A stretch of DNA of 52,070 nucleotides from Candidatus Peregrinibacteria bacterium CG_4_9_14_0_2_um_filter_41_14 (GTDB lineage Bacteria > Patescibacteriota > Gracilibacteria > UBA1369 > UM-FILTER-41-14), in assembly GCA_002788755.1 (NCBI GenBank), contig PFRW01000050.1, positions 1 to 52,070 on the forward strand. Reading direction: 5' to 3'. Below are positions 7,343 through 52,070 of the stretch, one piece after another. The translations under genes and the position numbers were made by a program. Positions within the stretch are counted from its first letter, which is position 1. Every line of letters begins with the position of its first letter. The notes under the pieces are model-generated. The model made no database searches, was not told the origin of the DNA, and saw only the letters and a program-made list of their open reading frames with translations.

Positions 7343-9022
7343 GTGTGGTTAAGTAGAAACATGTTAACTAATACAAACATGCGAATGAAAAAACTAATAC
7401 TTGTCTTGGGGGTTTTGCTACTATTGCCTAGCTCTGTTTTTGCTCTTAGTACAACGCCAGTTCCTCGTGGTGAATTTATTAAAATTATTTTAGATGCCAA
7501 TAATGTGGTGCCAGCCGCAACAGAAACTGACTTTGAGGGGGTTAGCCCAGAGTTGGCTCCTTATTTGGAGGAGATGCGTAAATTAGGCTTAATCTACTAC
7601 AACGCTTATAGTCCAACTTTTAATGAAGAACGGCCGTTTGCACTTTGGCGGTCTTTGTCATTACTAATGAAGTTGGAAGGAATTCCGGTGCCGATTACAT
7701 TTGACGAAGCTAAGTTTAAAGAAGTGTTTCCAACCTTAGTGCCGGGCGCTTTTTATGCACCAACAATGTTTCGCGCATATCAGGTTGGTCTGGTTGACCC
7801 TTTTAAGCAAGCTATTTGGCCAATTAACCCAACTACCGAAGGTGACGTGGCAATTATGCTGGCAAATCTAGCTTTATACGAAGATAAAATCGATCAGGCG
7901 CTAGACACACCAAATCCAAGCATAAATGACAATACTATTTCTCCTATACAACCAAACGGCTCGTTGACTAATAGCGATAAATATCCGATTTTGCTGGATG
8001 TATGGGATAAAATTACAAAAGAGTATGTTGATAAAAATAAATTAAGTGAGGATGATTTAATTTTTGGGGCAATTGAGGGGCTAGTGAATCGAGTTGGCGA
8101 TCCTTACAGTGTTTTTCAGGAACCGGAAGTAGCGGCAGCTTTTCAAAACTCTTTAAGTAACGAAATTCAGGGGATTGGGGCATCATTGGCTTTGGATGAT
8201 GCCGGCAATGTCGTAATCGTATCTCCACTTAACGATTCTCCGGCAGAAAGAGCAGGCTTGCGCCCCGGCGACGTTGTTAACAGCATTGATGGCAAAGTTA
8301 TCACTAATTTTACTTTGGTGGAGGTTGTACGCTTAATTCAAGGGGAGCCCGGCACGCAGGTGCGACTGGTAATTAAACGTGGGAGTTCGGTGTTAAACTT
8401 TACAATTGTGAGAGAGCGGATTTCGGTAGCGTCGGTTGTTGGTGAAGTTACAGCAGATGACATTTTAATTATTACCGTGAATAACTTTGGCTTTGGCACA
8501 GCCAGTAGTTTTGCAAGTTTTGTAAATCAGACCAATGCCGGTAATCTAAATGGTGTTATTATTGATTTGCGCAATAATCCTGGGGGCTTTTTGGATGCAG
8601 CCGTGGATATTGCCGGTAACTTTTTGGCTAAAGGCAAAGTAGTAACTCGTTTGGTCGGGCCAACTGTTTCAGAGACTGAGTATTCTACCGGTAGTGCAAA
8701 ATTGGCAAATGTGCCGACTTATGTGCTTATGAATAAGGGCAGCGCGTCAGCGTCCGAGATTTTGGCGGCGGCTTTGCATGACCATCACCAAGCGACCTTA
8801 ATTGGTGAAACTTCGTTTGGTAAAGGGACGGTCCAAGAAATTTCGACTTATTTGGACTCATCCTCGCTGAAATTAACGATTGCCAAGTGGCTTACGCCAA
8901 GTGGCATAAATATCCATGGCACTGGTATTAAGCCGGATATCTACGTTCAATATACCGATGCAGATAGAACCGCAGGCGTTGATCCTCAGCTAAATAAAGC
9001 CTTAAACGAAATTAGGAATTAG
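7343..9022 (+). CDS. S41 family C-terminal processing peptidase with N-terminal SLH-like repeats
   Basis: PDZ domain (SPAERAGLRPGDVVNSIDG), RNNPGG, the catalytic Ser motif GSASASEILA and the Lys motif FGKGTVQ. The track start is GTG 7343. ATG 7379/7385 (MRMKKLILVLG...) gives a cleaner signal peptide. Confidence 0.88.
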   Translation: MWLSRNMLTNTNMRMKKLILVLGVLLLLPSSVFALSTTPVPRGEFIKIILDANNVVPAATETDFEGVSPELAPYLEEMRKLGLIYYNAYSPTFNEERPFALWRSLSLLMKLEGIPVPITFDEAKFKEVFPTLVPGAFYAPTMFRAYQVGLVDPFKQAIWPINPTTEGDVAIMLANLALYEDKIDQALDTPNPSINDNTISPIQPNGSLTNSDKYPILLDVWDKITKEYVDKNKLSEDDLIFGAIEGLVNRVGDPYSVFQEPEVAAAFQNSLSNEIQGIGASLALDDAGNVVIVSPLNDSPAERAGLRPGDVVNSIDGKVITNFTLVEVVRLIQGEPGTQVRLVIKRGSSVLNFTIVRERISVASVVGEVTADDILIITVNNFGFGTASSFASFVNQTNAGNLNGVIIDLRNNPGGFLDAAVDIAGNFLAKGKVVTRLVGPTVSETEYSTGSAKLANVPTYVLMNKGSASASEILAAALHDHHQATLIGETSFGKGTVQEISTYLDSSSLKLTIAKWLTPSGINIHGTGIKPDIYVQYTDADRTAGVDPQLNKALNEIRN

Positions 9023-11007
9023 GCCTGCTGGGCCTGTTCAGCAAGAATTTCTTCCGGATTGGTGGTGATAATTTTATCTTCACCGTACGAGGCAATGATT
9101 TGAATGGCCACGTGCTTATTTCCTGCAAAAAATAGGCCTTGGCCAACATTGCTGTTTAGTAATAAGTAGCGCTCCCCTTCTGTTAAATTAAAAATCTGGC
9201 TCAGCAGTTCAACCGCCGATGGTGACTGTTTGAGCAACAGCTGCATAGATGAGTTGGTAATGATCGGTTTGCCGTATTTGCTTTTGAGGAAATCTTCAAC
9301 ATCTTGAGTAATGGTCGTAACACCTAGGTAATATTTACGAGCACGTTTGACTAAGCCGTGTAAAAACTTGGCGGAATCTTCAAACTGCATCATGGTCCAG
9401 GCCTCATCTACAATTAAGAGTCGGCGTTTTAGCGAGCTTCGCACTTGATTCCAAATGTAATTTAAAATGATGTACATGGCGATTGGTCGTAATTGGTCTT
9501 CTAAATCACGTACGCTAAAGACAACTAGACCTGTGTTTAAATTAACGTTTGTTGGCTTATTAAAGACACCAGCGTAGGTACCGCTAATGTATTTTTCCAG
9601 TTTTTGCACAATCACTTCGGCGCCCTTAATACCTTTTAAAATACTGAAGAGATCTTCCATGGTTGGCGGCTCCATGCCTGTTGGGTCAACCATGTCCATG
9701 GTGATTCCTTTTAGGGCATAGACATCGATTAAGGCTTTGTCGACCAAGCTTTCTTCGAGCGGGCTAGAAGAGCCAAGCATTAATTTGAGAAGGCCTTGAA
9801 GGGTAATAATATTAGTACGTAGGAGGTCACCCGGTTTTGGTTGTTCGTCAATTAGGGCTGCGGGGAGGTCAAATGGATTAATCCGGCGATCTGCATTTAG
9901 TGAAACGCGTAAATATGAGCCGCCCACAGTTTGAGCCAGTTCTTCATACTCATTTTCCGGATCGATGACAATTACGTCGGTTCCGAGCATAAGGCTGCGG
10001 AGGATTTCCAATTTAACAGCGTAAGATTTACCGGCACCGGACTTGGCAAACACAACGGAGTTAGCATTTTCGAGATTAAAACGATCAAAAATAATCAAAC
10101 TTTCGTTATGGCGATTAAGGCCGTATAAAATACCTTCGTTTGTAGTTAGGTCACTTGAACTAAACGGGAAAGTGGAAGATAGCGGTGAGGTGTTCATATT
10201 ACGGTGAATTTCGATTTCGTCTAAACATAATGGTAAAGTTGAGTTTAGTGCTTGTTCTGCACGTAAATCGGCACGTCTGGTTAGGACCAGCTTACCACCG
10301 AGTAAACTTTCGATTTGCTTGGATAGCTTATTAAGTTGATCTTCGTCTTCGGCATAAATAGTAATGTACATGCCAAACTGAAAGAATTTTTCTTGCCCAC
10401 GTTGAATTTGGGTTCGGAGGTTTTCGGCATCTTCCAGCTGTGTTTCTAGGGCTGGATCGCGCACAAGGCCTTTTTCTTGGTTAATGCGCATTGCGGAGTG
10501 CATTTGTGTGACTTTGCGTTTAAGAATCTTCATAATTGCTGCAGATTCGATAGGGTAAATAAACTGAGCAATATCGATTGTTGCATCAAAATTAACCAAT
10601 GGGTTCATCCAGTTTGTTTCGATATAACGCGGATAAGTAAAAACGAAAAAACTGCGAGCGTATAGGCCGCTGACTTTCATTTTATCAAAATAGATCTCCA
10701 TTGCCGAAGGGGCAATGAGGTCTTTAATAGAGGCGAGGCCTTGATTATAGGCTTTTTCAGCTTCTATTAGGCGGGTGCGCTCGGCGGGTGTGAGTTTTTC
10801 GGGTTTTGTGGATGCGGGCTTCGCTGCAGGGGGCTGGGCCTTCGCTGACGCTTCGGCTGCTTCAGAAGGCACGGCCTTTGCTGACGCTCCGGCTTTGTTC
10901 TGATACCAATGCTGAATTGGCCCTAACACCTTATCAATAAGGGACGTTTTGGCCGCAATGGGAGCTGGGGCTTCTGTTGGAACCGGCTTGGTTGGTAAAG
11001 TTGGCAT
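9019..11007 (-). CDS. VirB4/TrbE-family type IV secretion ATPase
   Basis: Walker A FAKSGAGKSYAVK followed by VIVIDPENEYEEL, and Walker B RRLLIVDEAWTMM followed by RKYYLGVTTITQDVEDF. The N-terminal ~90 aa form an Ala/Pro/Lys-rich low-complexity extension. Confidence 0.8.
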   Translation of the reverse strand: MPTLPTKPVPTEAPAPIAAKTSLIDKVLGPIQHWYQNKAGASAKAVPSEAAEASAKAQPPAAKPASTKPEKLTPAERTRLIEAEKAYNQGLASIKDLIAPSAMEIYFDKMKVSGLYARSFFVFTYPRYIETNWMNPLVNFDATIDIAQFIYPIESAAIMKILKRKVTQMHSAMRINQEKGLVRDPALETQLEDAENLRTQIQRGQEKFFQFGMYITIYAEDEDQLNKLSKQIESLLGGKLVLTRRADLRAEQALNSTLPLCLDEIEIHRNMNTSPLSSTFPFSSSDLTTNEGILYGLNRHNESLIIFDRFNLENANSVVFAKSGAGKSYAVKLEILRSLMLGTDVIVIDPENEYEELAQTVGGSYLRVSLNADRRINPFDLPAALIDEQPKPGDLLRTNIITLQGLLKLMLGSSSPLEESLVDKALIDVYALKGITMDMVDPTGMEPPTMEDLFSILKGIKGAEVIVQKLEKYISGTYAGVFNKPTNVNLNTGLVVFSVRDLEDQLRPIAMYIILNYIWNQVRSSLKRRLLIVDEAWTMMQFEDSAKFLHGLVKRARKYYLGVTTITQDVEDFLKSKYGKPIITNSSMQLLLKQSPSAVELLSQIFNLTEGERYLLLNSNVGQGLFFAGNKHVAIQIIASYGEDKIITTNPEEILAEQAQQA

Positions 11008-41071: not shown

Positions 41072-41249
41072 GAAAAACGGGTTAATTTGCTAAGCTTTTT
41101 TACAGGTTTTGCCTGTTTTCGTCAAGGCAAAAAAGCATAAAAGGCTGAATTTATTGACTCTATTGCTTCGACTATGGTATTATTTTTTAGAAATAAGTTT
41201 CCGGCCGTGGTTTATATACCACACCTAGCGGGAAATTTGTTTCTTTTTT

Positions 41250-41699
41250 TTATTTGGAATCTGGAAATATGGATATTAGAAATTTTTGATCAGTAATTTT
41301 GCTTTCCTTTATCTGCACATAAAAGAACTCATCCGCTAACGTAATTCCGCCAAAACGATGAAGTATATGATTTGAATTACTTGGATCATCCTTTGATATT
41401 GGGGTATTTTTCGAGTTTTTGATCAATTCGATGCCGCAGGGATAGAACTTAAGTCGCCTGGTTCTATCTTTCCAGTTTTTCTGATTAAGATGTTGCCAGA
41501 ATAATCCTAAAAATATTTTCTCGTTCCGAAAATAGGCAGATCGTATGTATGGTCTACGTTTTGTATTCGCCTTAATTTGCCTATACAGACTGAAAGCCTT
41601 TTTATACACATCAATGTATTTTGTGCCAGTAAATGGCTTGGTGCTAGTTTGATATACTTTCATAGTTATTATCTTACTTAGCAGCAAAGTATACATCAA
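41250..41699 (-). CDS. small basic hypothetical protein
   Basis: Very AT-rich ORF. The track start is TTG, and ATG alternatives lie at 41696 and 41663 (MKVYQTSTKP...). It is Lys/Arg-rich and I recognise no family. Confidence 0.45.
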   Translation of the reverse strand: MMYTLLLSKIITMKVYQTSTKPFTGTKYIDVYKKAFSLYRQIKANTKRRPYIRSAYFRNEKIFLGLFWQHLNQKNWKDRTRRLKFYPCGIELIKNSKNTPISKDDPSNSNHILHRFGGITLADEFFYVQIKESKITDQKFLISIFPDSK

Positions 41700-41748
41700 A
41701 AATTTTTTATATTTTTGAAAGAAATCTATTCAACCTTGCGTATCAGTT

Positions 41749-41764
41749 AATGCAAGCTTGCATT
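41749..41764. promoter_or_regulatory. perfect 16-bp palindrome AATGCAAGCTTGCATT in a divergent intergenic region
   Basis: Read directly from the sequence. It lies between the divergent genes 41250-41699 (-) and 41785-42318 (+) and is a candidate operator for a dimeric regulator. Confidence 0.35.
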
Positions 41765-41784
41765 TATTGTCTAACTTAAACAAA

Positions 41785-42318
41785 ATGACAAATACAACAA
41801 AGTCCACATTGGTCACGCTCCTGGCGTTATCGCTCTTAATTGTGGGCACTTCGGTTGTCTCGGCGCAGGACGCCAATAAGGCAACCGGCCAATTTTTGAG
41901 ATCACCTTGGGGAAATCCCGAGTCGGTTAAGGCGGTTGAGCAGGGCGATTTTAATGCATGGCGCGATGCCGTTGCGCCCAAAGCAACATTCGACGCTTTA
42001 GTAAAAGCCAACAAACTTAAAGCGGATGGTGATCTTAAAGGTGCCAAAGCGGTTTTAGATGAAGCCGGCGTTAAAGGCCCAATGGGTGGCGGGCAACACA
42101 TGATGTTTAGAGGCGAAAGCCAGAATCACGAAGCCATTCACGCCGCAATAGAAAACAACGAATTTACAGCATGGAAGGCGGCAATGGCCGACTTGCCAAA
42201 TGCTGATAAATTTGTCACTGAGGAAAACTTTAACAGTATGGTAAAAATGCACGAACTTAAGGAATCCGGAGATAAGGAAGGCTTAAGGACTTTAAGAATG
42301 GACCGTTTGAAAAAGTAG
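41785..42318 (+). CDS. secreted helical protein with two internal repeats
   Basis: Signal peptide MTNTTKSTLVTLLALSLLIVGTSVVSAQD. Repeat 1 is AVEQGDFNAWRDAV...FDALVKANKLKADGDLKGAKAVL and repeat 2 is AIENNEFTAWKAAM...FNSMVKMHELKESGDKEGLRTL. The track start at 41758 is a TTG inside the palindrome. Confidence 0.6.
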   Translation: MTNTTKSTLVTLLALSLLIVGTSVVSAQDANKATGQFLRSPWGNPESVKAVEQGDFNAWRDAVAPKATFDALVKANKLKADGDLKGAKAVLDEAGVKGPMGGGQHMMFRGESQNHEAIHAAIENNEFTAWKAAMADLPNADKFVTEENFNSMVKMHELKESGDKEGLRTLRMDRLKK

Positions 42319-42342
42319 CGTCTTCAAGAAACGTAATCAAAA

Positions 42343-42378
42343 AATCTCGCTCGGGAAGATCCCTGAGTGGGATTTTTT
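42343..42378 (+). terminator. intrinsic terminator
   Basis: TCTCGCTCGGG-AAGAT-CCC(T)GAGTGGGA forms a stem of about 11 bp with one bulge, followed by TTTTTT. It starts 25 nt after the stop at 42318. Confidence 0.7.
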
Positions 42379-42484
42379 GGTGAGGGTGGAAAGTATGGTA
42401 TCCATAATAGACGAAGGACATTTGATCCTCAACCCACTGCTATCGACAATACAATCACCGGTACTAATGCAGAGATAACCTCCA

Positions 42485-43195
42485 CTACAACAACAACCCC
42501 ATAAACGGCTTAAACGTCTCGTGATACTGCTTGGAATAGGCTAGGGCAAAAATGGAATTGCCGCTGATGGTGACGACAAAGACTTCGTTGATTTTGGCTT
42601 TGTGGTTGAGGTAGAAGGAGTTGTCGCCAAATTGATTGGTTTCGTTTACATCGATGCTGGTTATGGTTTTGGCTTGGGTTTTGATTTGGGTATAGAGTTT
42701 GCGGGCGTCTTGTTGATTTTTGAGCGTAAATTCGTAGACGGCGCCGAGGACATTTTTATTTGCGCCTTCACCAAGAACCAGCTGACCAAGGGCAACGTCA
42801 TCAGGGTTAACGTCTGTTTCAATCACATCAAAAACTTTGCCGCTAAAATTTACCGGTTGGTACTTAATATTAGGAATGTCGAGAGAAGGCAGTAAATCAA
42901 CAACTTTTTGGCTAACTTTTACACTGACGCCGCTAATTTGAGTATCGTCGTTAACGGGCAAATCGATGTTTTCTACAGTTTCGGTTACAGGAGTGGTGTC
43001 TGTAATTGGCTCAATATCCTTGATTTCGTCGAAAGATGCGGGAGGAGTGCTGTCTAAATTATCTAAATTGGTTAAGAGATTGGCGCTGGCACTGCTAGGA
43101 TACAGCTTGGACAAGTAATCTTGCGTGACAAGTTCGGCGGTAATACTTAAAACAATTACGGCAAAGATAATCGAAAAGATGGTAAACTTTTGCAT
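42485..43195 (-). CDS. membrane-anchored extracytoplasmic hypothetical protein
   Basis: N-terminal anchor FTIFSIIFAVIVLSITA. It begins 4 nt after the nusG stop on the same strand. I recognise no family. Confidence 0.55.
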   Translation of the reverse strand: MQKFTIFSIIFAVIVLSITAELVTQDYLSKLYPSSASANLLTNLDNLDSTPPASFDEIKDIEPITDTTPVTETVENIDLPVNDDTQISGVSVKVSQKVVDLLPSLDIPNIKYQPVNFSGKVFDVIETDVNPDDVALGQLVLGEGANKNVLGAVYEFTLKNQQDARKLYTQIKTQAKTITSIDVNETNQFGDNSFYLNHKAKINEVFVVTISGNSIFALAYSKQYHETFKPFMGLLL

Positions 43196-44110: not shown

Positions 44111-44242
44111 GTGCACAGGTTAAGTTGATCTAATATTAAAAAGCCCGCTTTTGGGCTTGTTCTATTTAATTATAGCGATTTAAGTTATTTATGCAATCTT
44201 TTTTTAAGTGCCTGAGTTTGGATTGGCTTTGTACCATAGCTG

Positions 44243-44251
44243 TGTTATAAT
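44243..44251 (+). promoter_or_regulatory. extended -10 element (TGtTATAAT) upstream of the pilin-module locus
   Basis: TG at 44243-44244 and TATAAT at 44246-44251, 26 nt before the ATG at 44278. Confidence 0.45.
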
Positions 44252-44277: not shown

Positions 44278-45186
44278 ATGAAATTTGGGCTGAGAAGTTT
44301 ACTTTTGACTATGGCAACAGTACTGACATTATTTGCTGGAAACCTCTACATGGTGCCGCAAACAAATGCTTTTTTTGACTTGGCGACAGATCAATATACG
44401 CAGTTTTTGCCGGGTACAACAGGTAGTACATTGCAAGAGCGTGCCGGTAATCTTTTAAGTAGAGCGACGAATATTGTGCGGCTAGTGATTGCACCAATTG
44501 CCATTTTAATTATGTTAACCGGTAGCATTAGGATGGTAATGGCTCGTGGTGATGAAGAGGCATACAAAAAAGGCACACGGACACTGGTATATGGTACGGC
44601 CGGTATTGCCATTGTGGCTTTATCCGGTGATCTTGCACAACTGTTATCACCGGAAAGTGGGGGTCTGTTGGGTAGTGACGCTGTATTGCGTGAACGTGGT
44701 CTTATTTTTGATAACACACTGAGGATCGTTTTAACTTTTGTGAAATATGTGGCGGGAACGGTTGCCGTTGCTATGTTAGTGCGTATTGGATTCCGATTGG
44801 TGGCTTTTAGTGCCTCGGATGACGAATTGGCGGAAGACAAAAAGAATATGGGTTTAATTGCTGCCGGTCTTGTAGTTCTGATTTTTAGCGATACCTTAAT
44901 TAGAAAAGTTTTATACAAGGTCGACTCGCCTGTAGATGGTGCTGTTAGTGCTGATTTACCACAAGCTATGAAAGAGCTGGTGGGGTTTATTAATTTAATT
45001 GTGACTTTTGTGGGGCCAATTGCCCTGATTACTTTAGTGGCGGGTGGCGTGATGTATGCTGCTTCCGGTGTTAACGAGGAACTGCAAGCTAAGGCCAAAA
45101 AGATGATTGGCGTTTCGCTGGGAGGGATCATTTTAATTTATGGTGCCTTTGCGATTGTAAATACCTTTATTGTTGGTCGATTTTAA
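44278..45186 (+). CDS. polytopic membrane protein made of three tandem VirB2/TrbC-like pilin-hairpin modules
   Basis: Signal peptide ending ...PQTNA. The modules lie at about aa 62-123, 147-212 and 231-298. Each is a hydrophobic helix, then a loop such as ARGDEEAYKKG, SASDDELAEDKKN or ASGVNEELQAKAKK, then a second hydrophobic helix. The last ends AFAIVNTFI. Confidence 0.65.
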   Translation: MKFGLRSLLLTMATVLTLFAGNLYMVPQTNAFFDLATDQYTQFLPGTTGSTLQERAGNLLSRATNIVRLVIAPIAILIMLTGSIRMVMARGDEEAYKKGTRTLVYGTAGIAIVALSGDLAQLLSPESGGLLGSDAVLRERGLIFDNTLRIVLTFVKYVAGTVAVAMLVRIGFRLVAFSASDDELAEDKKNMGLIAAGLVVLIFSDTLIRKVLYKVDSPVDGAVSADLPQAMKELVGFINLIVTFVGPIALITLVAGGVMYAASGVNEELQAKAKKMIGVSLGGIILIYGAFAIVNTFIVGRF

Positions 45187-45193
45187 TCAAATT

Positions 45194-46231
45194 ATGTTGA
45201 AACTGTTTAAAACAATACCGTTAATCGTCATGCTGGCTTGCAGCCTGTTTGTAACCACAGTGCCTAGTGCCTTGGCTTTTAAGATTGATGTTAATGTAGT
45301 GCCAAAAGAAGATAACACGCCTCTAATTGATGAAAAAACTTCGCCACTACAATTTTTTGAGAACATTGGAAATGCGACAGATTTAAATAATATCAAAAAT
45401 GAAACCGGTGCAAACGTTGTGAGCGAAGGTGGTCTTGGCCAAATTACGGGACTGCTAAGTAAAATCATTAATATTATTAAATGGGCGATTGGTGGTGTAG
45501 CGGTAATATTTACAATTTGGACGGCGGTGCGCATGCTAACGGCAACCGATGAGGCTGAAGCAGTAATGACTGATGCAAAAAAGGGACTCACCTATTTATT
45601 AATTGGACTATTTTCGGTTTTTGCAATTGAGATTTTTGTGAATAATGTGCTGGTGATTGGTGATGGCAACTTTTTGGGCAGTGTGGATGCGGCAAGAAAT
45701 GCTGCCGGGGCGGCTAGTGCCGAAATTAGGGGCATCTATAACTTAGGTGAAATATTTTTGGGGATTTTTGCGGTGGGAATCATCATCTTTAATGGCTTTA
45801 AAATGGTGACCAATGCCGGCAATGATGAAGCGCTGGACAATGCCAAAAAGAATATTGGCTGGGGTATTGCCGGAATTGTATTGGTTGGTCTATCGGAGCT
45901 GATTGTGAAAGACATTTTGTTTGTAGATGCAGGGCAAGGTGGCTTTGATATTGAAAGAGCCAAACAACTAATTGTCCAGTTAACTAATTTTATTTCCGGA
46001 TTTATTGCGGTTACGGCGGTAGTCATGTTTATTTATGCAGGTTACTTATACATCTTTTCGGCCGTTGGTGATGACAATACCGAAAAAGTTAAGCAAGCAA
46101 TTTTGGGTGCTATTATTGGCATAATTATTGCTGCCGGTGCTTATGGATTAGTTAATACTTTTGTAAAATTTGAAGCACCAACATTTTCAGAGGTAATTCA
46201 AGGACAAATTGACAGTGGATTGGGGAATTAA
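45194..46231 (+). CDS. second polytopic protein with three pilin-hairpin modules
   Basis: Signal peptide MLKLFKTIPLIVMLACSLFVTTVPSALA. The three module loops are TATDEAEAVMTDAKKG, NAGNDEALDNAKKN and SAVGDDNTEKVKQA, each flanked by hydrophobic helices. The last module ends GLVNTFV. The track start at 45170 is TTG. Confidence 0.65.
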   Translation: MLKLFKTIPLIVMLACSLFVTTVPSALAFKIDVNVVPKEDNTPLIDEKTSPLQFFENIGNATDLNNIKNETGANVVSEGGLGQITGLLSKIINIIKWAIGGVAVIFTIWTAVRMLTATDEAEAVMTDAKKGLTYLLIGLFSVFAIEIFVNNVLVIGDGNFLGSVDAARNAAGAASAEIRGIYNLGEIFLGIFAVGIIIFNGFKMVTNAGNDEALDNAKKNIGWGIAGIVLVGLSELIVKDILFVDAGQGGFDIERAKQLIVQLTNFISGFIAVTAVVMFIYAGYLYIFSAVGDDNTEKVKQAILGAIIGIIIAAGAYGLVNTFVKFEAPTFSEVIQGQIDSGLGN

Positions 46232-46341: not shown

Positions 46342-49300
46342 ATGCGTAAATTACTTTCTTTAATCGGTAAGTTCCTAACTGGAGCCATTCTTGCAACCAT
46401 GCTAATGGTGGCATTTGGTGGTACTGAGATTGTGGCAGCGCAAGATCTTTGCGGGTCTATCTCTGGTGACTTTGGGGGGTTTATTGATTGTAATGATCAA
46501 ATTACTTCTTTTACTCAGTTTTCGGGTGGCTTGGAGCCGGTGGCGGCTACGGGGCTAGATCCAAATTTAACGAGAACAGATAACGCGAGAGATTTTATTA
46601 AAAGTATTGTTAACTTTGCGCTGAGCTTTCTTGGTTTAATTGCGCTGGTCATTGTGATTTACGGTGGCTTTTTGTATGTAACCGATGCCGGTGCGGGTGA
46701 ACAGTCCGAAAAAGGGAAAAAGGCGATCATGTATGCGATTATTGGTATTTTGATTATTTTGAGTTCGTTTGCAATTGTAAACACGGTGCTAAAGGCGCCG
46801 GGTGACATTGGCACAAGTGGGCAGCCGGGTGGTCCGGGACAAACCAATGTGCAACAGTTAGCAAACTACAACAGTGCGGCCGAGCAAACTAAAGATGCAA
46901 CCTTGGAATTTATTAGAGCTTATGAAAATTACTTTAATCAAAGTGTACTGCTGCAAAAAATTATGACTTACAAGGCAGATAAGCTAACAACCAGACAAGA
47001 CATAATTGACTACCTTCAATTTGTACGTCGCAATTTAGCTGATCTTGAACGTCGGAATGGCACATCAGAGGGGACGGCTAATCTTTCGCAAGCATCGCTG
47101 GCGGCACGAATTACGATTGATAATGTTGTGGACCCGTCGTTGCAATTAATGGAAGACACGATTCAAGCCGAAACAACCGAGGAAGCCTATGTTAAGGCTT
47201 ACCGTAATGGTATTGGGAGCTTTATTGATGATTCACGCAAACTTGTGGACGATGTGGTAGAAGGTGTGTCTTCTGCCGGTACTGCAATTAAGAGTGTCTT
47301 TACGGGCGGTGATGCCGGTTTAAATAAGCGTGCTGAAGATATTAACTGTTACTTACCACCGGAATTCCGCGCTGCAGATAGATCCTTTGATTGTAAAGGA
47401 GCGCTAGAAAGCACGAAGACGAACAAAGGTAGTGATATTATCGACAGTGTAAATGCCTATATTGAAGACATTGTGATTAAGAATGGCATTAACGTTGATT
47501 ACAATGACCGGCTTGAGGTGATTGTTAATAGCACACGTGATATTCAAGATAACCTATTAAACTTTGGGACTGTGCAAGTAACTCCGGAAGTGGATCGAAC
47601 CTTTACAGAGGTAATAAATTTATTGGGCGATGCTCGTGCGGAAAATATTGCATATCAAATTAATGTTGGTCCAAATGAGTTTGGCAGTAACCCAAATGTG
47701 ACAGCATCGGAAGCATTTCAACGAACAGCCGTTGTCCGTGATTTATTATTAAAATTTAATGATCTATATGAGCTGCTCAATAATATTGATTTTGTGGCGG
47801 CCTTTGTGACAGCAACAGCAACAAGAGGTAATGCGCCACTGGTGGTGCAATTTGATGGCTCCGGCTCATACGATCCTGCCGATCAATCTTTAACAGATGA
47901 AAACTACGAATGGGATTTAGATGGTGATGGTCAATTTGGACGCATTAATCCGGACAACGTGATGGACTGTAAAGAAGAGAAACATGCAGTTGTCACTTGT
48001 ACATATAAACAACCCGGTTCATACCGTGTAGCCTTGCGTGTTACCAGTAACCGTCCGGAACAAATTGCACCGGGACTTGCCTATATTACCGTAAGCGTGC
48101 AAGAGCCGGTGGCTAAAATCGATTTAAAGACTGTAATTGATAGTGAGGAAATAGTTGTGCGCAGTTATAATGCATCCGGTTTTATTGAACGGGATATTGA
48201 CGAAGTGAGAGTAACCTTAAATGAGGCATCCGCCGGCGAAGGCATGGTGTTTGATGCCCGTGGTACGGCGCTAAATTCCGAAGGCAAACAAATTGTGCGC
48301 TACAGTTGGGATTTTGGCGACAGAACCGCCAAGCTAACCGGCAGTGAACAAGAGGCCGGGCGCGTGGCACATGTTTATACTCAAAATGGAACATATAGTG
48401 TGGTGTTGGAAGTAGAAGATGAAACAGGTAATAAGGATCGTAAAATTTTCCGTGTAGTTGTCACTTCTTTGGCGGCAAATTTGCGAGTTAGTGAATTTAG
48501 AGGCGACCTAAATACCGAATTTACTTTTGATGCCGGCCGCTCTAAGAGTGATGGTGGTCAAATTACACAATACAATTGGTCGATTGCCGGCGTGGATGAT
48601 TTGGATGCGGAAAATGCGCCGACCTTAAAACACCGATTTGAAAGTCCGGGCACATATACTGTGACCGTGCAAATTCAAGATTCGGCCGGTAATGCCGACA
48701 CGGTTTCTACCGAAGTACTGGTAGAGTCGCAAACGCCAAAGGCATTCTTTACGGTTGAGTTTATTCCAAGTCAACCAAGTACGGTCATTTTGGATGCTTC
48801 CAATAGTTATGATCCGGACGAAGGTGATGTACTTAGTTTTCAATGGACCGTATTTAATGCCCGCGAAGGTACTGATTTTGAGGTATTATCCGGCAAACTA
48901 AAAGGCCCTCGGGCTGATGCCGAAAAACTTAAACTCAAATTTAACAAACAACGTAACTATGTTGTGGAACTTAAAGTAGCGGACCAATACGAAGATGATC
49001 GTTTACGAAAAGAAACCAGCTTACAAGCAGATGTAAATATTCAATCACTAGTAGATGTGACAATAGGTACGGATCATCAACAAGCAGCCATTTTAAGAGA
49101 CGGTAAAGCTGATGTCACTCTGCATTTTGTCTCTGACTTTGCCAAAACCATAGAAGTGGATTTTGGCGATCAGTCGCAAGAGGCGGGCGCTTTTACAAAT
49201 GGTAGCTTTAAGGTTAATCATACTTATACGCAGTCTGGTTTATACCGTGTAGTTGCGCATGCTTTTGGACCGGAAGGTGATGAAAACAGTGTCACAACAA

Positions 49301-51093
49301 CTGTGGCCGTTGGCCGTGGTGACGCAATTATTCCGGTTGTGGAAATTGACTATAATGGGGTTACATACCACTTGGATGATACCTTACCGGTAATAAGCCG
49401 TAATCAATCCGTAAAATTTAGTGCCGGAAAATCATTAAACAGTAATGGCACAAAAACGGGTCTGGAATATAGTTGGAACTTTGGAGATGGGCGCTTTGCC
49501 GATGGCGCAGCGGCCACTCATACATTTACGGACTTGGCACCAAATCCACCCGGATACTTTGAAGTAACACTGCAAGCGGGCAATAGCCTTGGTCAAAGTG
49601 AAACTATTAATTTTAACTTAAAAGTAGCCAGTGTGCCGCCGGTTATTAAAGATATTGTAGTAACGCCTCTTGTCGAAAATCCGGTGACACCATTTAATGT
49701 GCGTGTAGAAGCACAAGGTGCTGCCGATCCCGATGGATCAATTAAAGAATACCGTTTCTATTATTTTTCTGTTTTAGATCCGGGGCGCATCTTAGGAACT
49801 AAAATTGTGAAAGACCCCACAGCCGAGTTAGAAGTAGATACCTTTGGCGTTGAAGGTGACCGTAATGAATTCGCTTTTTGTGTCGATATTAAAGATAACG
49901 AAGGCAACACAGTTAACTGCCAAGAACGCTTTAAATTGGAAGACCTACCAAAACTAACTGCCACAAACGGCAAAAATGATCCGCCGGTTGCAAGTTTTGT
50001 TGTTGATCGAACCAATGTATTTGTTGGTGAAGAGATCAATTTTAGTAGTACTTCGTCAGATCCCGACGGTGAGATTGTTAGTTATCAATGGGATATTGAC
50101 GGTGATGGTAGTTTTGCCAACGATGAGCCAAAAACACAAAGTGCACTCGTACAAACATATACTCGTCGATCTGCAGAAACAGGTTATCGTGTGCGTCTCA
50201 AAGTTGTTGACGACAAGGGTGCGACTGCAATTTCGGAACCGGTAACAGTCTTTGTAGATAGTATCTTAAAGGCACCAACTGCCGCATTTACAACTAAAAT
50301 AACAAATAGCAAAGTTGATTTTGTGAATAATTCTCGTGCCGATACAAGTAAGGGTGGTGAGCTGGTCGTTAATAATTGGGATTTTGATTTGAGCCGTGAT
50401 AGCGATGGTGATGGCGACAAAACAAATGATGTTGATGCCACCGGTGCGACGCCAAGCCATACTTATGTTGAGGCTGGCACATATCAAGCTAAACTAGCGA
50501 TTGCCGATAATGAAGGCACTGAAGATAGCGTGATTAACACAATTATCATTACCAATGTATCCGCAGCAGGCCCAGCCATTAATAATGGTAAAAGCGCAGC
50601 AGGTTTAAGAGCGGTACTTGATACTGAACCGGCAATTGACCCGGTAACAGATACAATCTACCTGGAAGGTGCCGAAGCCAATGTTACTTTCTTTTTTGAT
50701 GCCAGTTTAGGTGACATTAAAAGTTATATTATTGATCGAAATATCTTCTTTGACACTAATGGTGGTCAACCAAATACGCCTGGTGATGGCATTCGCAATA
50801 ATGATGCTGACTTTATAACGCAAAATCCCCTAGTTCCTTACACAAGTAATTTCCGTCCGGAATGGGAACCTGTTGAAGTTCAGCTAACAGTTGTAGATGC
50901 TAATGGCAATGTTAGCCAAGATCGCGTTAAGGTAACATTTGCTAAACCGGGGCTAGGGCGAGCCACATTAAGTAATGTAAGTAGCACGATGCTAATAATC
51001 ATTCTTGCGATAGTAGGTGGACTTGGTGTATTATTATATGTTGGGTCTTTACTACTTTACCGGCCGAAACGCGGCAAACGTAAATTAAATTAA
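46342..51093 (+). CDS. giant surface protein (1583 aa): signal peptide, one pilin-hairpin module, helical region, about 10 PKD-like domains, C-terminal TM anchor
   Basis: GAGGA Shine-Dalgarno site 5 nt upstream. The module at aa ~83-152 reads FIKSIVNFALSFLGLIALVIVIYGGFLYVTDAGAGEQSEKGKKAIMYAIIGILIILSSFAIVNTVL. PKD signatures recur (YEWDLDGDG, YSWDFGDR, YSWNFGDG, YQWDIDGDG, ...GTY.V.L.V.D..G). The C-terminus is MLIIILAIVGGLGVLLYVGSLLLY followed by RPKRGKRKLN. Confidence 0.85.
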   Translation: MRKLLSLIGKFLTGAILATMLMVAFGGTEIVAAQDLCGSISGDFGGFIDCNDQITSFTQFSGGLEPVAATGLDPNLTRTDNARDFIKSIVNFALSFLGLIALVIVIYGGFLYVTDAGAGEQSEKGKKAIMYAIIGILIILSSFAIVNTVLKAPGDIGTSGQPGGPGQTNVQQLANYNSAAEQTKDATLEFIRAYENYFNQSVLLQKIMTYKADKLTTRQDIIDYLQFVRRNLADLERRNGTSEGTANLSQASLAARITIDNVVDPSLQLMEDTIQAETTEEAYVKAYRNGIGSFIDDSRKLVDDVVEGVSSAGTAIKSVFTGGDAGLNKRAEDINCYLPPEFRAADRSFDCKGALESTKTNKGSDIIDSVNAYIEDIVIKNGINVDYNDRLEVIVNSTRDIQDNLLNFGTVQVTPEVDRTFTEVINLLGDARAENIAYQINVGPNEFGSNPNVTASEAFQRTAVVRDLLLKFNDLYELLNNIDFVAAFVTATATRGNAPLVVQFDGSGSYDPADQSLTDENYEWDLDGDGQFGRINPDNVMDCKEEKHAVVTCTYKQPGSYRVALRVTSNRPEQIAPGLAYITVSVQEPVAKIDLKTVIDSEEIVVRSYNASGFIERDIDEVRVTLNEASAGEGMVFDARGTALNSEGKQIVRYSWDFGDRTAKLTGSEQEAGRVAHVYTQNGTYSVVLEVEDETGNKDRKIFRVVVTSLAANLRVSEFRGDLNTEFTFDAGRSKSDGGQITQYNWSIAGVDDLDAENAPTLKHRFESPGTYTVTVQIQDSAGNADTVSTEVLVESQTPKAFFTVEFIPSQPSTVILDASNSYDPDEGDVLSFQWTVFNAREGTDFEVLSGKLKGPRADAEKLKLKFNKQRNYVVELKVADQYEDDRLRKETSLQADVNIQSLVDVTIGTDHQQAAILRDGKADVTLHFVSDFAKTIEVDFGDQSQEAGAFTNGSFKVNHTYTQSGLYRVVAHAFGPEGDENSVTTTVAVGRGDAIIPVVEIDYNGVTYHLDDTLPVISRNQSVKFSAGKSLNSNGTKTGLEYSWNFGDGRFADGAAATHTFTDLAPNPPGYFEVTLQAGNSLGQSETINFNLKVASVPPVIKDIVVTPLVENPVTPFNVRVEAQGAADPDGSIKEYRFYYFSVLDPGRILGTKIVKDPTAELEVDTFGVEGDRNEFAFCVDIKDNEGNTVNCQERFKLEDLPKLTATNGKNDPPVASFVVDRTNVFVGEEINFSSTSSDPDGEIVSYQWDIDGDGSFANDEPKTQSALVQTYTRRSAETGYRVRLKVVDDKGATAISEPVTVFVDSILKAPTAAFTTKITNSKVDFVNNSRADTSKGGELVVNNWDFDLSRDSDGDGDKTNDVDATGATPSHTYVEAGTYQAKLAIADNEGTEDSVINTIIITNVSAAGPAINNGKSAAGLRAVLDTEPAIDPVTDTIYLEGAEANVTFFFDASLGDIKSYIIDRNIFFDTNGGQPNTPGDGIRNNDADFITQNPLVPYTSNFRPEWEPVEVQLTVVDANGNVSQDRVKVTFAKPGLGRATLSNVSSTMLIIILAIVGGLGVLLYVGSLLLYRPKRGKRKLN

Positions 51094-51103
51094 CCTTTCT
51101 ACT

Positions 51104-52070
51104 ATGGATGAAGATACAAATACCAATTCAAATCAACAACCGATCGAACCGGAAATGATTGATGTGCGTGAAACCCCTCAATATAAGGAGTATGAAGCGC
51201 AACAAGTAGCTGGCTCCGGATTATTGTTTGAAGACAACCCCGCTTTAAAGATGCAAGGCAATGTAAGTGCCGTGCCGGATGAGACTGTTGAAGAGGCTGT
51301 GGCTGCCGTGGAACAAATGGCTCCCGTGGAACCTGTGGAACCTGTGTCTCCCGAGCAACCCGTGGCTGCCGAGCAACCCGTGGTCACCGAGCAACCCGTG
51401 GCTCCCGTGGAACAAATGGCTCCCGTGGAACCTGTGTCTCCCGAACAACCCGTGGCTCCCGAGCAACCCGTGGCTGCCGAGCAACCCGTGGTCACCGAGC
51501 AACCCGTGGCTCCCGAACAACCCGTGGCTCCCGTGGAACAAATGGCTCCCGTGGAACCTGTGTCTCCCGAACAACCCGTGGCTCCCGAGCAACCCGTGGT
51601 CACCGAGCAACCTGTGGCTCCCGAACAACCCGTGGCTCCCGTGGAACAAATGGCTCCCGTGGAACCTGTGTCTCCCGAGCAACCTGTGGCTCCCGAGCAA
51701 CCTGTGGTCACCGAGCAACCTGTGTCTCCCGAACAACCCGTGGCTCCCGTGGAACAAATGGCTCCCGAACAACCTGTGTCTCCCGAACAACCTGTGTCTC
51801 CCGTGGAACAAATGGCTCCCGTGGAACCTGTGTCTCCCGAGCAACCCGTGGCTCCCGAGCAACCTGTGGTCACCGAGCAACCTGTGTCTCCCGAACAACC
51901 CGTGGCTCCCGTGGAACAAATGGCTCCCGTGGAACCTGTGTCTCCCGAGCAACCCGTGGCTGCCGAGCAACCCTTGGCTCCCGTCGTTCATCAGCATAAA
52001 AAAGGGCACCTACTTGGTATTATGCTGGGTCTAATTGCGGTTTTTGCGATTTTGGGAATTGGCTTTTCGG
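51104..52070 (+). CDS. repeat-rich membrane protein, partial (continues beyond the window): acidic N-terminus, about 38 V-A-P-E-Q-P-type hexapeptides, TM helix
   Basis: Not in the ORF track because there is no stop before the window end. My translation from the ATG at 51104 is MDEDTNTNSNQQPIEPEMIDVRETPQYKEYEAQQ...VEQMAPVEPVSPEQPVAPEQPVVTEQP...HQHKKGHLLGIMLGLIAVFAILGIGFS. Differences between units fall mainly at third positions of this frame (GAG/GAA, CCC/CCT). Confidence 0.75.
   Translation, partial: MDEDTNTNSNQQPIEPEMIDVRETPQYKEYEAQQVAGSGLLFEDNPALKMQGNVSAVPDETVEEAVAAVEQMAPVEPVEPVSPEQPVAAEQPVVTEQPVAPVEQMAPVEPVSPEQPVAPEQPVAAEQPVVTEQPVAPEQPVAPVEQMAPVEPVSPEQPVAPEQPVVTEQPVAPEQPVAPVEQMAPVEPVSPEQPVAPEQPVVTEQPVSPEQPVAPVEQMAPEQPVSPEQPVSPVEQMAPVEPVSPEQPVAPEQPVVTEQPVSPEQPVAPVEQMAPVEPVSPEQPVAAEQPLAPVVHQHKKGHLLGIMLGLIAVFAILGIGFS
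51299..51991 (+). repeat. in-frame 18-nt tandem repeat array with higher-order units of 54-126 nt
   Basis: The basic unit is GTGGCTCCCGAGCAACCC and variants (GTGTCTCCC..., GTGGTCACC..., ATGGCTCCCGTGGAACCT). I counted about 38 units plus one 9-nt half unit at 51335-51343. Super-repeat blocks starting at each GTGTCTCCC are 90, 126, 108, 108, 54, 108 and 54 nt. Confidence 0.9.

Follow-up and report, generated by a model that had tools for sequence, protein, structure and literature searches.

Tandem fusions of three VirB2-like pilin hairpins in two neighbouring genes of a Gracilibacteria bacterium

Why would two neighbouring genes each encode a pilin-type membrane hairpin three times over in a single reading frame? 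Pilins of this kind are small proteins of ~100-180 amino acids (aa) with one hairpin, whereas the two proteins considered here, A (302 aa) and B (353 aa), carry three hairpins each. Their genes lie side by side on a stretch of 52,070 nucleotides (contig PFRW01000050.1, positions 1 to 52,070; hereafter the window) from Candidatus Peregrinibacteria bacterium CG_4_9_14_0_2_um_filter_41_14. This uncultured member of the Patescibacteria, or candidate phyla radiation (CPR), has a genome of ~0.96 Mb that is 90% complete, and its closest relatives among public genomes bear the labels Candidatus Peribacteria, Peregrinibacteria or Gracilibacteria. An initial annotation, made from the DNA letters, had recognised two adjacent genes with three pilin hairpins each and had suggested three roles for their products, namely polyprotein precursors, a pseudo-oligomeric base or platform, and VirB6-like channel components.

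The triple-hairpin architecture stands, with profile matches, profile-profile comparison, covariation and structure prediction in agreement. Gene A occupies 44278-45186 and gene B 45170-46231, both on the + strand; B measures 353 aa when read from a TTG codon and 345 aa if its start is the ATG at 45194, so that the coordinates and the sizes first given (302 and ~345 aa) were correct. The Pfam family T4SS_pilin (PF18895; T4SS, type IV secretion system) matches each protein in three separate stretches, with E 1.7e-16 and 60.5 bits for A and E 2e-25 and 89.1 bits for B, its gathering cut-off being 26.6 bits. When the genome was searched in six frames, which is also the source of the Pfam coordinates given below, four of the six modules scored above this cut-off individually. 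Hydropathy profiles of A and B each comprise one N-terminal hydrophobic segment resembling a signal peptide and six transmembrane (TM) segments, as had been proposed. Judged by eye and hydropathy only, the signal peptide of A would span residues ~1-31 (ending in PQTNA, followed by FF) and that of B would end in VPSALA, followed by FK.

Within A, the first module (A1) covers residues 50-124 (44425-44649; Pfam 44443-44625; loop RGDEEAYKKGTR) and is recovered by its own module hidden Markov model (HMM) with E 2e-27. A2 follows at residues 131-217 (44668-44928; Pfam 44713-44901; loop SASDDELAEDKKN) and A3 at residues 217-298 (44926-45171; Pfam 44977-45168; loop SGVNEELQAKAKK), with B2 and B3 as their respective positional counterparts. 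The modules of B, likewise on the + strand, are B1 at residues 78-166 (45401-45667; Pfam 45437-45649, 42.8 bits; loop TATDEAEAVMTDAKKG), B2 at residues 169-255 (45674-45934; Pfam 45743-45910; loop NAGNDEALDNAKKN) and B3 at residues 259-337 (45944-46180; Pfam 45962-46162; loop SAVGDDNTEKVKQ). The shared loop signature of the initial annotation is real, yet it consists of acidic residues followed by Lys-Lys (e.g. GDEEAYKK, NDEALDNAKK, GDDNTEKVK) rather than being simply Lys-rich. AlphaFold2 models built on family alignments predict three long helix-loop-helix hairpins in both proteins, formed by helices 52-88/93-123, 134-176/181-216 and 227-262/267-299 in A and by helices 89-124/129-161, 172-214/219-250 and 261-296/301-331 in B. 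The B model has a predicted local distance difference test score (pLDDT) of 69.5; within the hairpins, this score reaches 70-87 for B and ~62-82 for A.

The internal repeat also has statistical support. Pairwise BLAST between modules gave E values down to 5e-9, and hhalign comparison of six position-specific sub-alignments related all 15 module pairs to one another with probabilities of 94.8-99.4% (E 5e-8 to 6e-22); HMMs built from the modules find them in turn. Besides, mean-field direct coupling analysis (DCA) of 175 non-identical triple-module proteins (effective number of sequences, 162) revealed a 5- to 7-fold enrichment of antiparallel intra-hairpin pairs in every hairpin (p 3e-4 to 3e-3, top 60 pairs). 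Between modules, five of the 100 top-ranking pairs, where 1.5 would be expected (p 0.02), connect the second helix of hairpin 2 (2b) with the first helix of hairpin 3 (3a) in antiparallel fashion, which hints that these two helices may pack against each other in this orientation.

Beyond their hairpins, A and B contain almost nothing, and neither has an ectodomain. They therefore cannot simply serve to anchor domains of their own, and their function must reside in contacts between hairpins, and with lipids. The linkers of 20-30 aa that had been described hold for the distance between hydrophobic cores; the module envelopes of A and B, by contrast, are separated by only 0-7 residues (up to ~40 in some homologues), and the non-helical gaps in the AlphaFold2 models amount to ~4-10 residues within conserved stretches. 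Moreover, the linkers are homologous between the two proteins, sharing the motif G-x-[FL]-L-x-S followed by [IV][KR]x[IV][LF][FY]xVD.

How old is this arrangement? A word-indexed search retrieved 42 full-length homologues of 26-61% identity, and all 42 have exactly three modules, as do the 14-15 orthologues of gene A (21-60% identity). In a tree of 124 modules, A3, B3 and the hairpin module of the downstream gene C form one clade (support 100/96), while A1, A2, B1 and B2 each fall into a clade of their own. By hhalign, the best partners are A2 with B2 (E 2.6e-21) and A3 with B3 (E 6e-22), and these mutual best matches, together with the shared linker motifs, place the triplication before the duplication that gave rise to A and B. 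Each of the six module positions has thus preserved an identity of its own across the class, which bears out the earlier impression that the modules had diverged and do not stem from a recent duplication. At E ≤ 1e-20, a profile of the B family matched in 122 of the 151 genomes sampled from the class Gracilibacteria (~80%), usually to an adjacent pair, whereas among 190 sampled Patescibacteria from outside the class only partial matches of one or two modules were obtained, in 13 genomes. The fusion is consequently ancient, class-wide and fixed. In some members of the class (G043, G140, G047, G030 and others), homologues of the triple pilins and of VirB4 have 8-37 in-frame TGA codons, as would be expected of the TGA-recoded lineages known from this class; the cassette would thus predate or span the change of code.

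A and B do not travel alone. The order rplA-rplK-(one or two genes)-nusG-secE, followed divergently by a gene for three hairpins, a second gene for three hairpins, a gene for one hairpin joined to a giant PKD protein (~1400-1800 aa) and a gene for a further PKD protein (~700-850 aa), is kept in nearly all of 26 species-level genomes of the Peregrinibacteria/Peribacteria type and in several metagenome contigs, and at almost every related locus the hairpin-PKD giant comes next after the A/B pair. In the window, this third gene of the cassette is gene C (46342-51093, + strand), whose product of 1583 aa comprises a signal peptide, one hairpin (residues 70-154; 46549-46803, + strand), at least seven PKD domains by Pfam and, at its C-terminus, a TM anchor. 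Pfam assigns it to PF18895 with 29.9 bits and to PKD_4 in seven stretches with E 5e-65. Its hairpin is nearest to the modules in position 3, with scores of 76 bits for B3 and 62 bits for A3.

The number of fused hairpins ranges from 2 to 8 among relatives. Of the best 147 new representatives scored with the module HMM, 100 have three hairpins and 20 have four; five hairpins occur in 3, six in 7, seven in 2 and eight in 1. At one related locus (L044, 7001-9463), an 820-aa protein with eight hairpins precedes a single pilin, a pilin-PKD protein and a PKD protein; at another (L045, 1777-3435), a six-hairpin protein sits within an array of 1+2+1+6+1 hairpins, and at a third (L046, 5628-8659) two four-hairpin proteins stand before single pilins and a PKD protein. 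As the hairpins are split differently among polypeptides in these relatives, fused and separate hairpins are parts of one set and interchangeable. Arrays of separate VirB2-like pilin genes are known from Patescibacteria, where 441 arrays of 2-11 genes have been reported and where PF18895 genes cluster with virB4 in 1135 assemblies (Quinonero-Coronel et al. 2025, PMC12102498). A pilin series within the T4SS locus is essential for epibiotic growth of Ca. Southlakia epibionticum ML1, the one genetically tractable species (PMC10633639). These arrays and the A/B pair have in common the PF18895 hairpin, the phylum, signal peptides and divergent paralogues of ~25% identity side by side, and the latter two of the above loci mix fused and single forms in one array. 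On the other hand, the published arrays comprise separate genes only, whereas A and B each hold three paralogues in one frame, with no intervening stops or leaders, at positions that are fixed class-wide and not beside virB4. The fused genes thus represent the intragenic form of the published multi-gene arrays. The source genome has, in addition, an array of five single-hairpin pilin-like proteins of 111, 159, 176, 417 and 263 aa on another contig (G000:C46:20688-24072, - strand), in each of which a variable ectodomain stands between a signal peptide and a C-terminal hairpin; the array directly adjoins a type IV pilus cluster (pseudopilin/PilC) and an FtsK-like gene, and is not next to virB4.

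The sole recognisable T4SS motor in the window is a VirB4-like ATPase (9019-11007, - strand; TraG P-loop 86.8 bits, AAA_10, TraC_F_IV). With a single copy in 145 of 151 class genomes and identities of 42-73%, it is unusually conserved for a T4SS gene. Its gene converges on that of an S41/PDZ C-terminal processing peptidase (7343-9022). No polytopic membrane partner was found beside virB4 in the window, the neighbouring proteins of 149 and 497 aa not being polytopic.

What, then, might these proteins build? Our preferred explanation, to which we assign a probability of about 0.5, is that A and B are uncleaved, covalent pseudo-trimers of pilin hairpins that co-assemble with the hairpin of gene C in one assembly, which is probably handled by VirB4. 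Each would be a six-helix membrane protein inserted via Sec. A signal peptide followed by modules with an even number of helices would place the N-terminus and the two linkers outside and the three acidic/Lys-Lys loops in the cytoplasm, as in membrane-embedded VirB2. The hairpins of A and B, six in all and non-equivalent, could associate with each other and with the N-terminal hairpin of the gene C giant, yielding one hetero-oligomeric, pilin-type assembly that would carry PKD rods at the cell surface and might serve adhesion, with the class-wide VirB4-like ATPase as the probable candidate motor. Fusion of the hairpins would fix their order and stoichiometry. That A and B may stay uncleaved is suggested by their short, conserved linkers, in which no signal-peptidase-like sites were detected (see below), and the idea of co-assembly draws on the position-specific conservation, the linkers, the variable partition of hairpins among polypeptides and the regular presence downstream of the hairpin-PKD giant, whose hairpin is closest to position 3. 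Of the roles put forward by the initial annotation, a pseudo-oligomeric base or platform is consequently the best-supported direction, given that module positions retain their identity, that the proteins consist of hairpins only and that a PKD giant supplies a seventh hairpin. As to its shape, we lean slightly towards a short membrane platform or stalk over a long filament.

Several points weigh against this explanation. The geometry between modules is unreliable in the AlphaFold2 models (predicted template modelling scores of 0.45 for B and 0.38 for A), and inter-module covariation is weak, with no DCA signal across linker 1. Cassettes differ in their total of hairpins (7, 10 or 11). The operon lies 33 kb from virB4, with housekeeping genes in between, and beside no T4SS gene in the window; T4SS genes are reported to be generally dispersed in the class Gracilibacteria (PMC12102498). 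Furthermore, the very label 'pilin' derives from PF18895 and from near-threshold matches to the TrbC/VirB2 family: for PF04956, module 3 of B reached 26.8 bits (E 6e-6), below the cut-off of 27.9 bits, C 18.7 bits, again below it, and A gave no match. Searching the PDB with hmmsearch, using full-length and module profiles, returned nothing below E 0.2 for the solved pilins (F, pED208, T-pilus, R388), and Foldseek with the B model against the PDB found only generic helical proteins at E ≥ 0.2, but helical hairpins carry little signal and these results are weak negative evidence. Finally, processing, localisation and partners of A and B are deduced here from sequence.

An extended version of the preferred explanation holds that A and B co-polymerise, with the hairpin of gene C at the tip or base, to give a tube of six non-equivalent hairpin positions. 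Since hairpin totals per cassette vary, a polymer is no poorer a fit than a fixed platform. We nonetheless consider this version tentative; to our knowledge, extracellular pilus polymerisation has been shown for no member of the PF18895 family.

Somewhat more doubtful is that A and B act independently of any T4SS, with the hairpin serving as a generic two-helix module and the two proteins as a scaffold that organises envelope or PKD proteins without VirB4-driven assembly. Such a role would suit a cassette that adjoins secE-nusG-rplKA and is far from virB4, a hairpin that anchors many unrelated ectodomains in the same genome, as in the array of five single-hairpin proteins described above, and the lack of matches to solved pilins. 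It sits less easily with the clustering of PF18895 genes with virB4 elsewhere and their essentiality within the Southlakia T4SS locus (PMC12102498, PMC10633639), with a VirB4-like ATPase no less universal across the class than the cassette itself, and with the score of B in NF045849, a family of Mycoplasma ICE pilin-like conjugal transfer proteins, whose cut-off of 40 bits B reaches in two stretches (40.5 bits), even if A, at 31.2 bits, and C, at 32.4 bits, stay below it.

Improbable in our view is the suggestion that A and B are polyprotein precursors, each cut in its two linkers to release three ordinary single-hairpin pilins. Conjugative pilins are, admittedly, heavily processed, by removal of a leader and, in TrbC and VirB2, by C-terminal trimming and cyclisation. 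Besides, helix 2 of each hairpin would be oriented in-to-out like a signal peptide, and single-, double- and multi-hairpin genes stand together in the L045 array. However, a crude scan for (-3,-1) signal-peptidase-like sites, run on 25 sequences of the B type and 15 of the A type, yielded no conserved small-x-small site in either outside linker; conserved matches fell only into cytoplasmic loops or inside TM helices. The sites of a dedicated protease of different specificity could escape such a scan. Accordingly, the cleavage-like linker motifs that orthologues might have shared did not materialise. The non-helical linkers comprise only a few residues and are conserved as components of long helices, at no locus does a gene for an S26 or TraF-like peptidase lie within or next to the cassette, and the number of fused hairpins varies among relatives, so that this option is left without support.

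The last option, that A and B stand in for VirB6/TrbL as the polytopic subunit that forms the inner-membrane channel or platform of the T4SS in this class, is just as improbable: although VirB6 homologues are reported absent in the class Gracilibacteria (PMC12102498), PF04610 (TrbL/VirB6) found nothing in the source genome and A and B provide six TM helices class-wide, neither protein matched PF04610 even at E ≤ 1, one family of the class (f16) has a TrbL-domain protein in 12 of 13 genomes alongside triple pilins in all 13, and the source genome holds a VirB6-like candidate of its own. This candidate, encoded on a different contig (G000:C16; L043:1288-3219), is a protein of 643 aa with a signal peptide, ~6 TM segments and a hydrophilic tail. 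It has no Pfam match itself, yet is homologous (E 1.7e-27) to a protein of the same class that shows a near-threshold TrbL match (23-28 bits) and is encoded 8 kb from the virB4 of its own genome. The 643-aa protein thus probably represents the source genome's divergent VirB6. A complementary distribution of VirB6 and triple pilins was likewise considered and rejected, as both are present in f16 and the source genome has this VirB6-like protein.

Comparison with known systems helps to place A and B under the preferred explanation, i.e. as uncleaved pseudo-trimers. They display the traits of the pilin family (a leader-like peptide, two-helix hydrophobic hairpins and short charged loops) and, like VirB2, TrbC and TraA, combine a leader with a two-helix hydrophobic hairpin of ~75-85 residues and a short charged loop. 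They differ in their sub-cut-off PF04956 score, the lack of a solved-pilin match, the monoderm host and the three hairpins per chain, and any pilus that they form is putative. With the Mbov_0395 family of mycoplasmas (NF045849) they share the monoderm, MPF-FATA-type context, and B scores above its cut-off, but that model describes a single hairpin of 80 positions and A and C fall short of it. VirB6/TrbL, in turn, is also a polytopic inner-membrane protein, with at least five TM helices, that is expected in every T4SS; as detailed above, A and B differ from it in lacking profile similarity and in co-occurring with it. A parallel in mode of working may come from another machine altogether. In archaeal A-type and V-type ATPases, duplicated, triplicated and multi-hairpin c/K proteolipid subunits are known, in which normally separate hairpins are fused head to tail, stoichiometry is fixed and the copies are free to diverge, much as might be the case in A and B. 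Neither the sequence family nor the machine is related, and the likeness would be one of working principle, not of membership. A link to the Pam pilus of CPR bacteria was rejected: the PamR model NF058578 scored 55 bits in gene C, on immunoglobulin (Ig)-like repeats, against a cut-off of 300, and the Pam pilus is an unrelated, Ig-fold, donor-strand system whose description does not mention T4SS pilins (PMC13278184).

The remaining features of the locus are quickly told. Genes A to D are co-oriented on the + strand, divergent from secE-nusG, and lie behind a promoter-like site at 44223-44251 (+ strand) within the 161-bp spacer between secE and gene A. Predicted by consensus scan only, this site consists of TTGGCT, a 17-nt spacer with TG, and TATAAT, with 10 of 12 consensus matches. 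Gene D (51104-52070, + strand) occupies the fourth slot of the cassette, in which relatives have a PKD protein of 690-850 aa, and BLAST links it to the 840-aa PKD protein of one such locus (L004). Its open reading frame encodes an acidic N-terminus and dozens of PEQPVA-type hexapeptide repeats upstream of a TM segment, and is cut by the contig end, which, coming just past the repeats and the TM segment, is probably an assembly break. Between nusG and rplK (41072-43195 in the window) lie genes for proteins of 236 and 186 aa without Pfam match; one or two unrelated inserted genes recur at this place in loci L005, L007 and L011, and the lineage has kept the very interruption of the secE-nusG-rplKA cluster. 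The adjacency of secE had raised the idea of a Sec-related role of A and B, which we rejected in that no family match supports it. Nor is a plasmid origin indicated, as tblastn of B against 72,556 plasmids returned no match.

The initial annotation knew of no description of such proteins, and in the literature searched we likewise found none of several VirB2-like hairpins in one polypeptide. The architecture is nonetheless common in databases, where proteins of the A and B type bear only the name 'hypothetical protein': against 1.84 billion representative proteins, the B-family profile produced 35,387 matches at E ≤ 1e-3, and 308 clusters at E ≤ 1e-30. To judge from the literature searched, the triple fusion is a so far undescribed variant of a component that is known yet little understood, and one that follows a strategy, the fusion of membrane hairpins, otherwise known from ATPase rotor subunits.

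VirB2-like pilins have been recognised only recently in monoderm Patescibacteria, and the fused forms constrain what these pilins build. Divergent hairpins that are tied into one chain, in an order fixed across the class, must act together in one assembly, which argues against the proposal that pilin paralogues represent alternative or antigenic variants (PMC12102498). The cassette further names two PKD adhesin-like proteins as candidate partners, and the abundance of the fusion, with its 308 representative clusters and its presence in ~80% of sampled class genomes, makes it a defined target for structural biology. Should A and B indeed co-polymerise into a tube, they would form the first T4SS-type appendage composed of fused subunits, the divergent pilins of the published arrays would be expected to co-assemble rather than to replace one another, and the cassette would encode a core host-attachment organelle of a whole CPR class, from Peregrinibacteria and Peribacteria to Gracilibacteria, the TGA-recoded lineages included.

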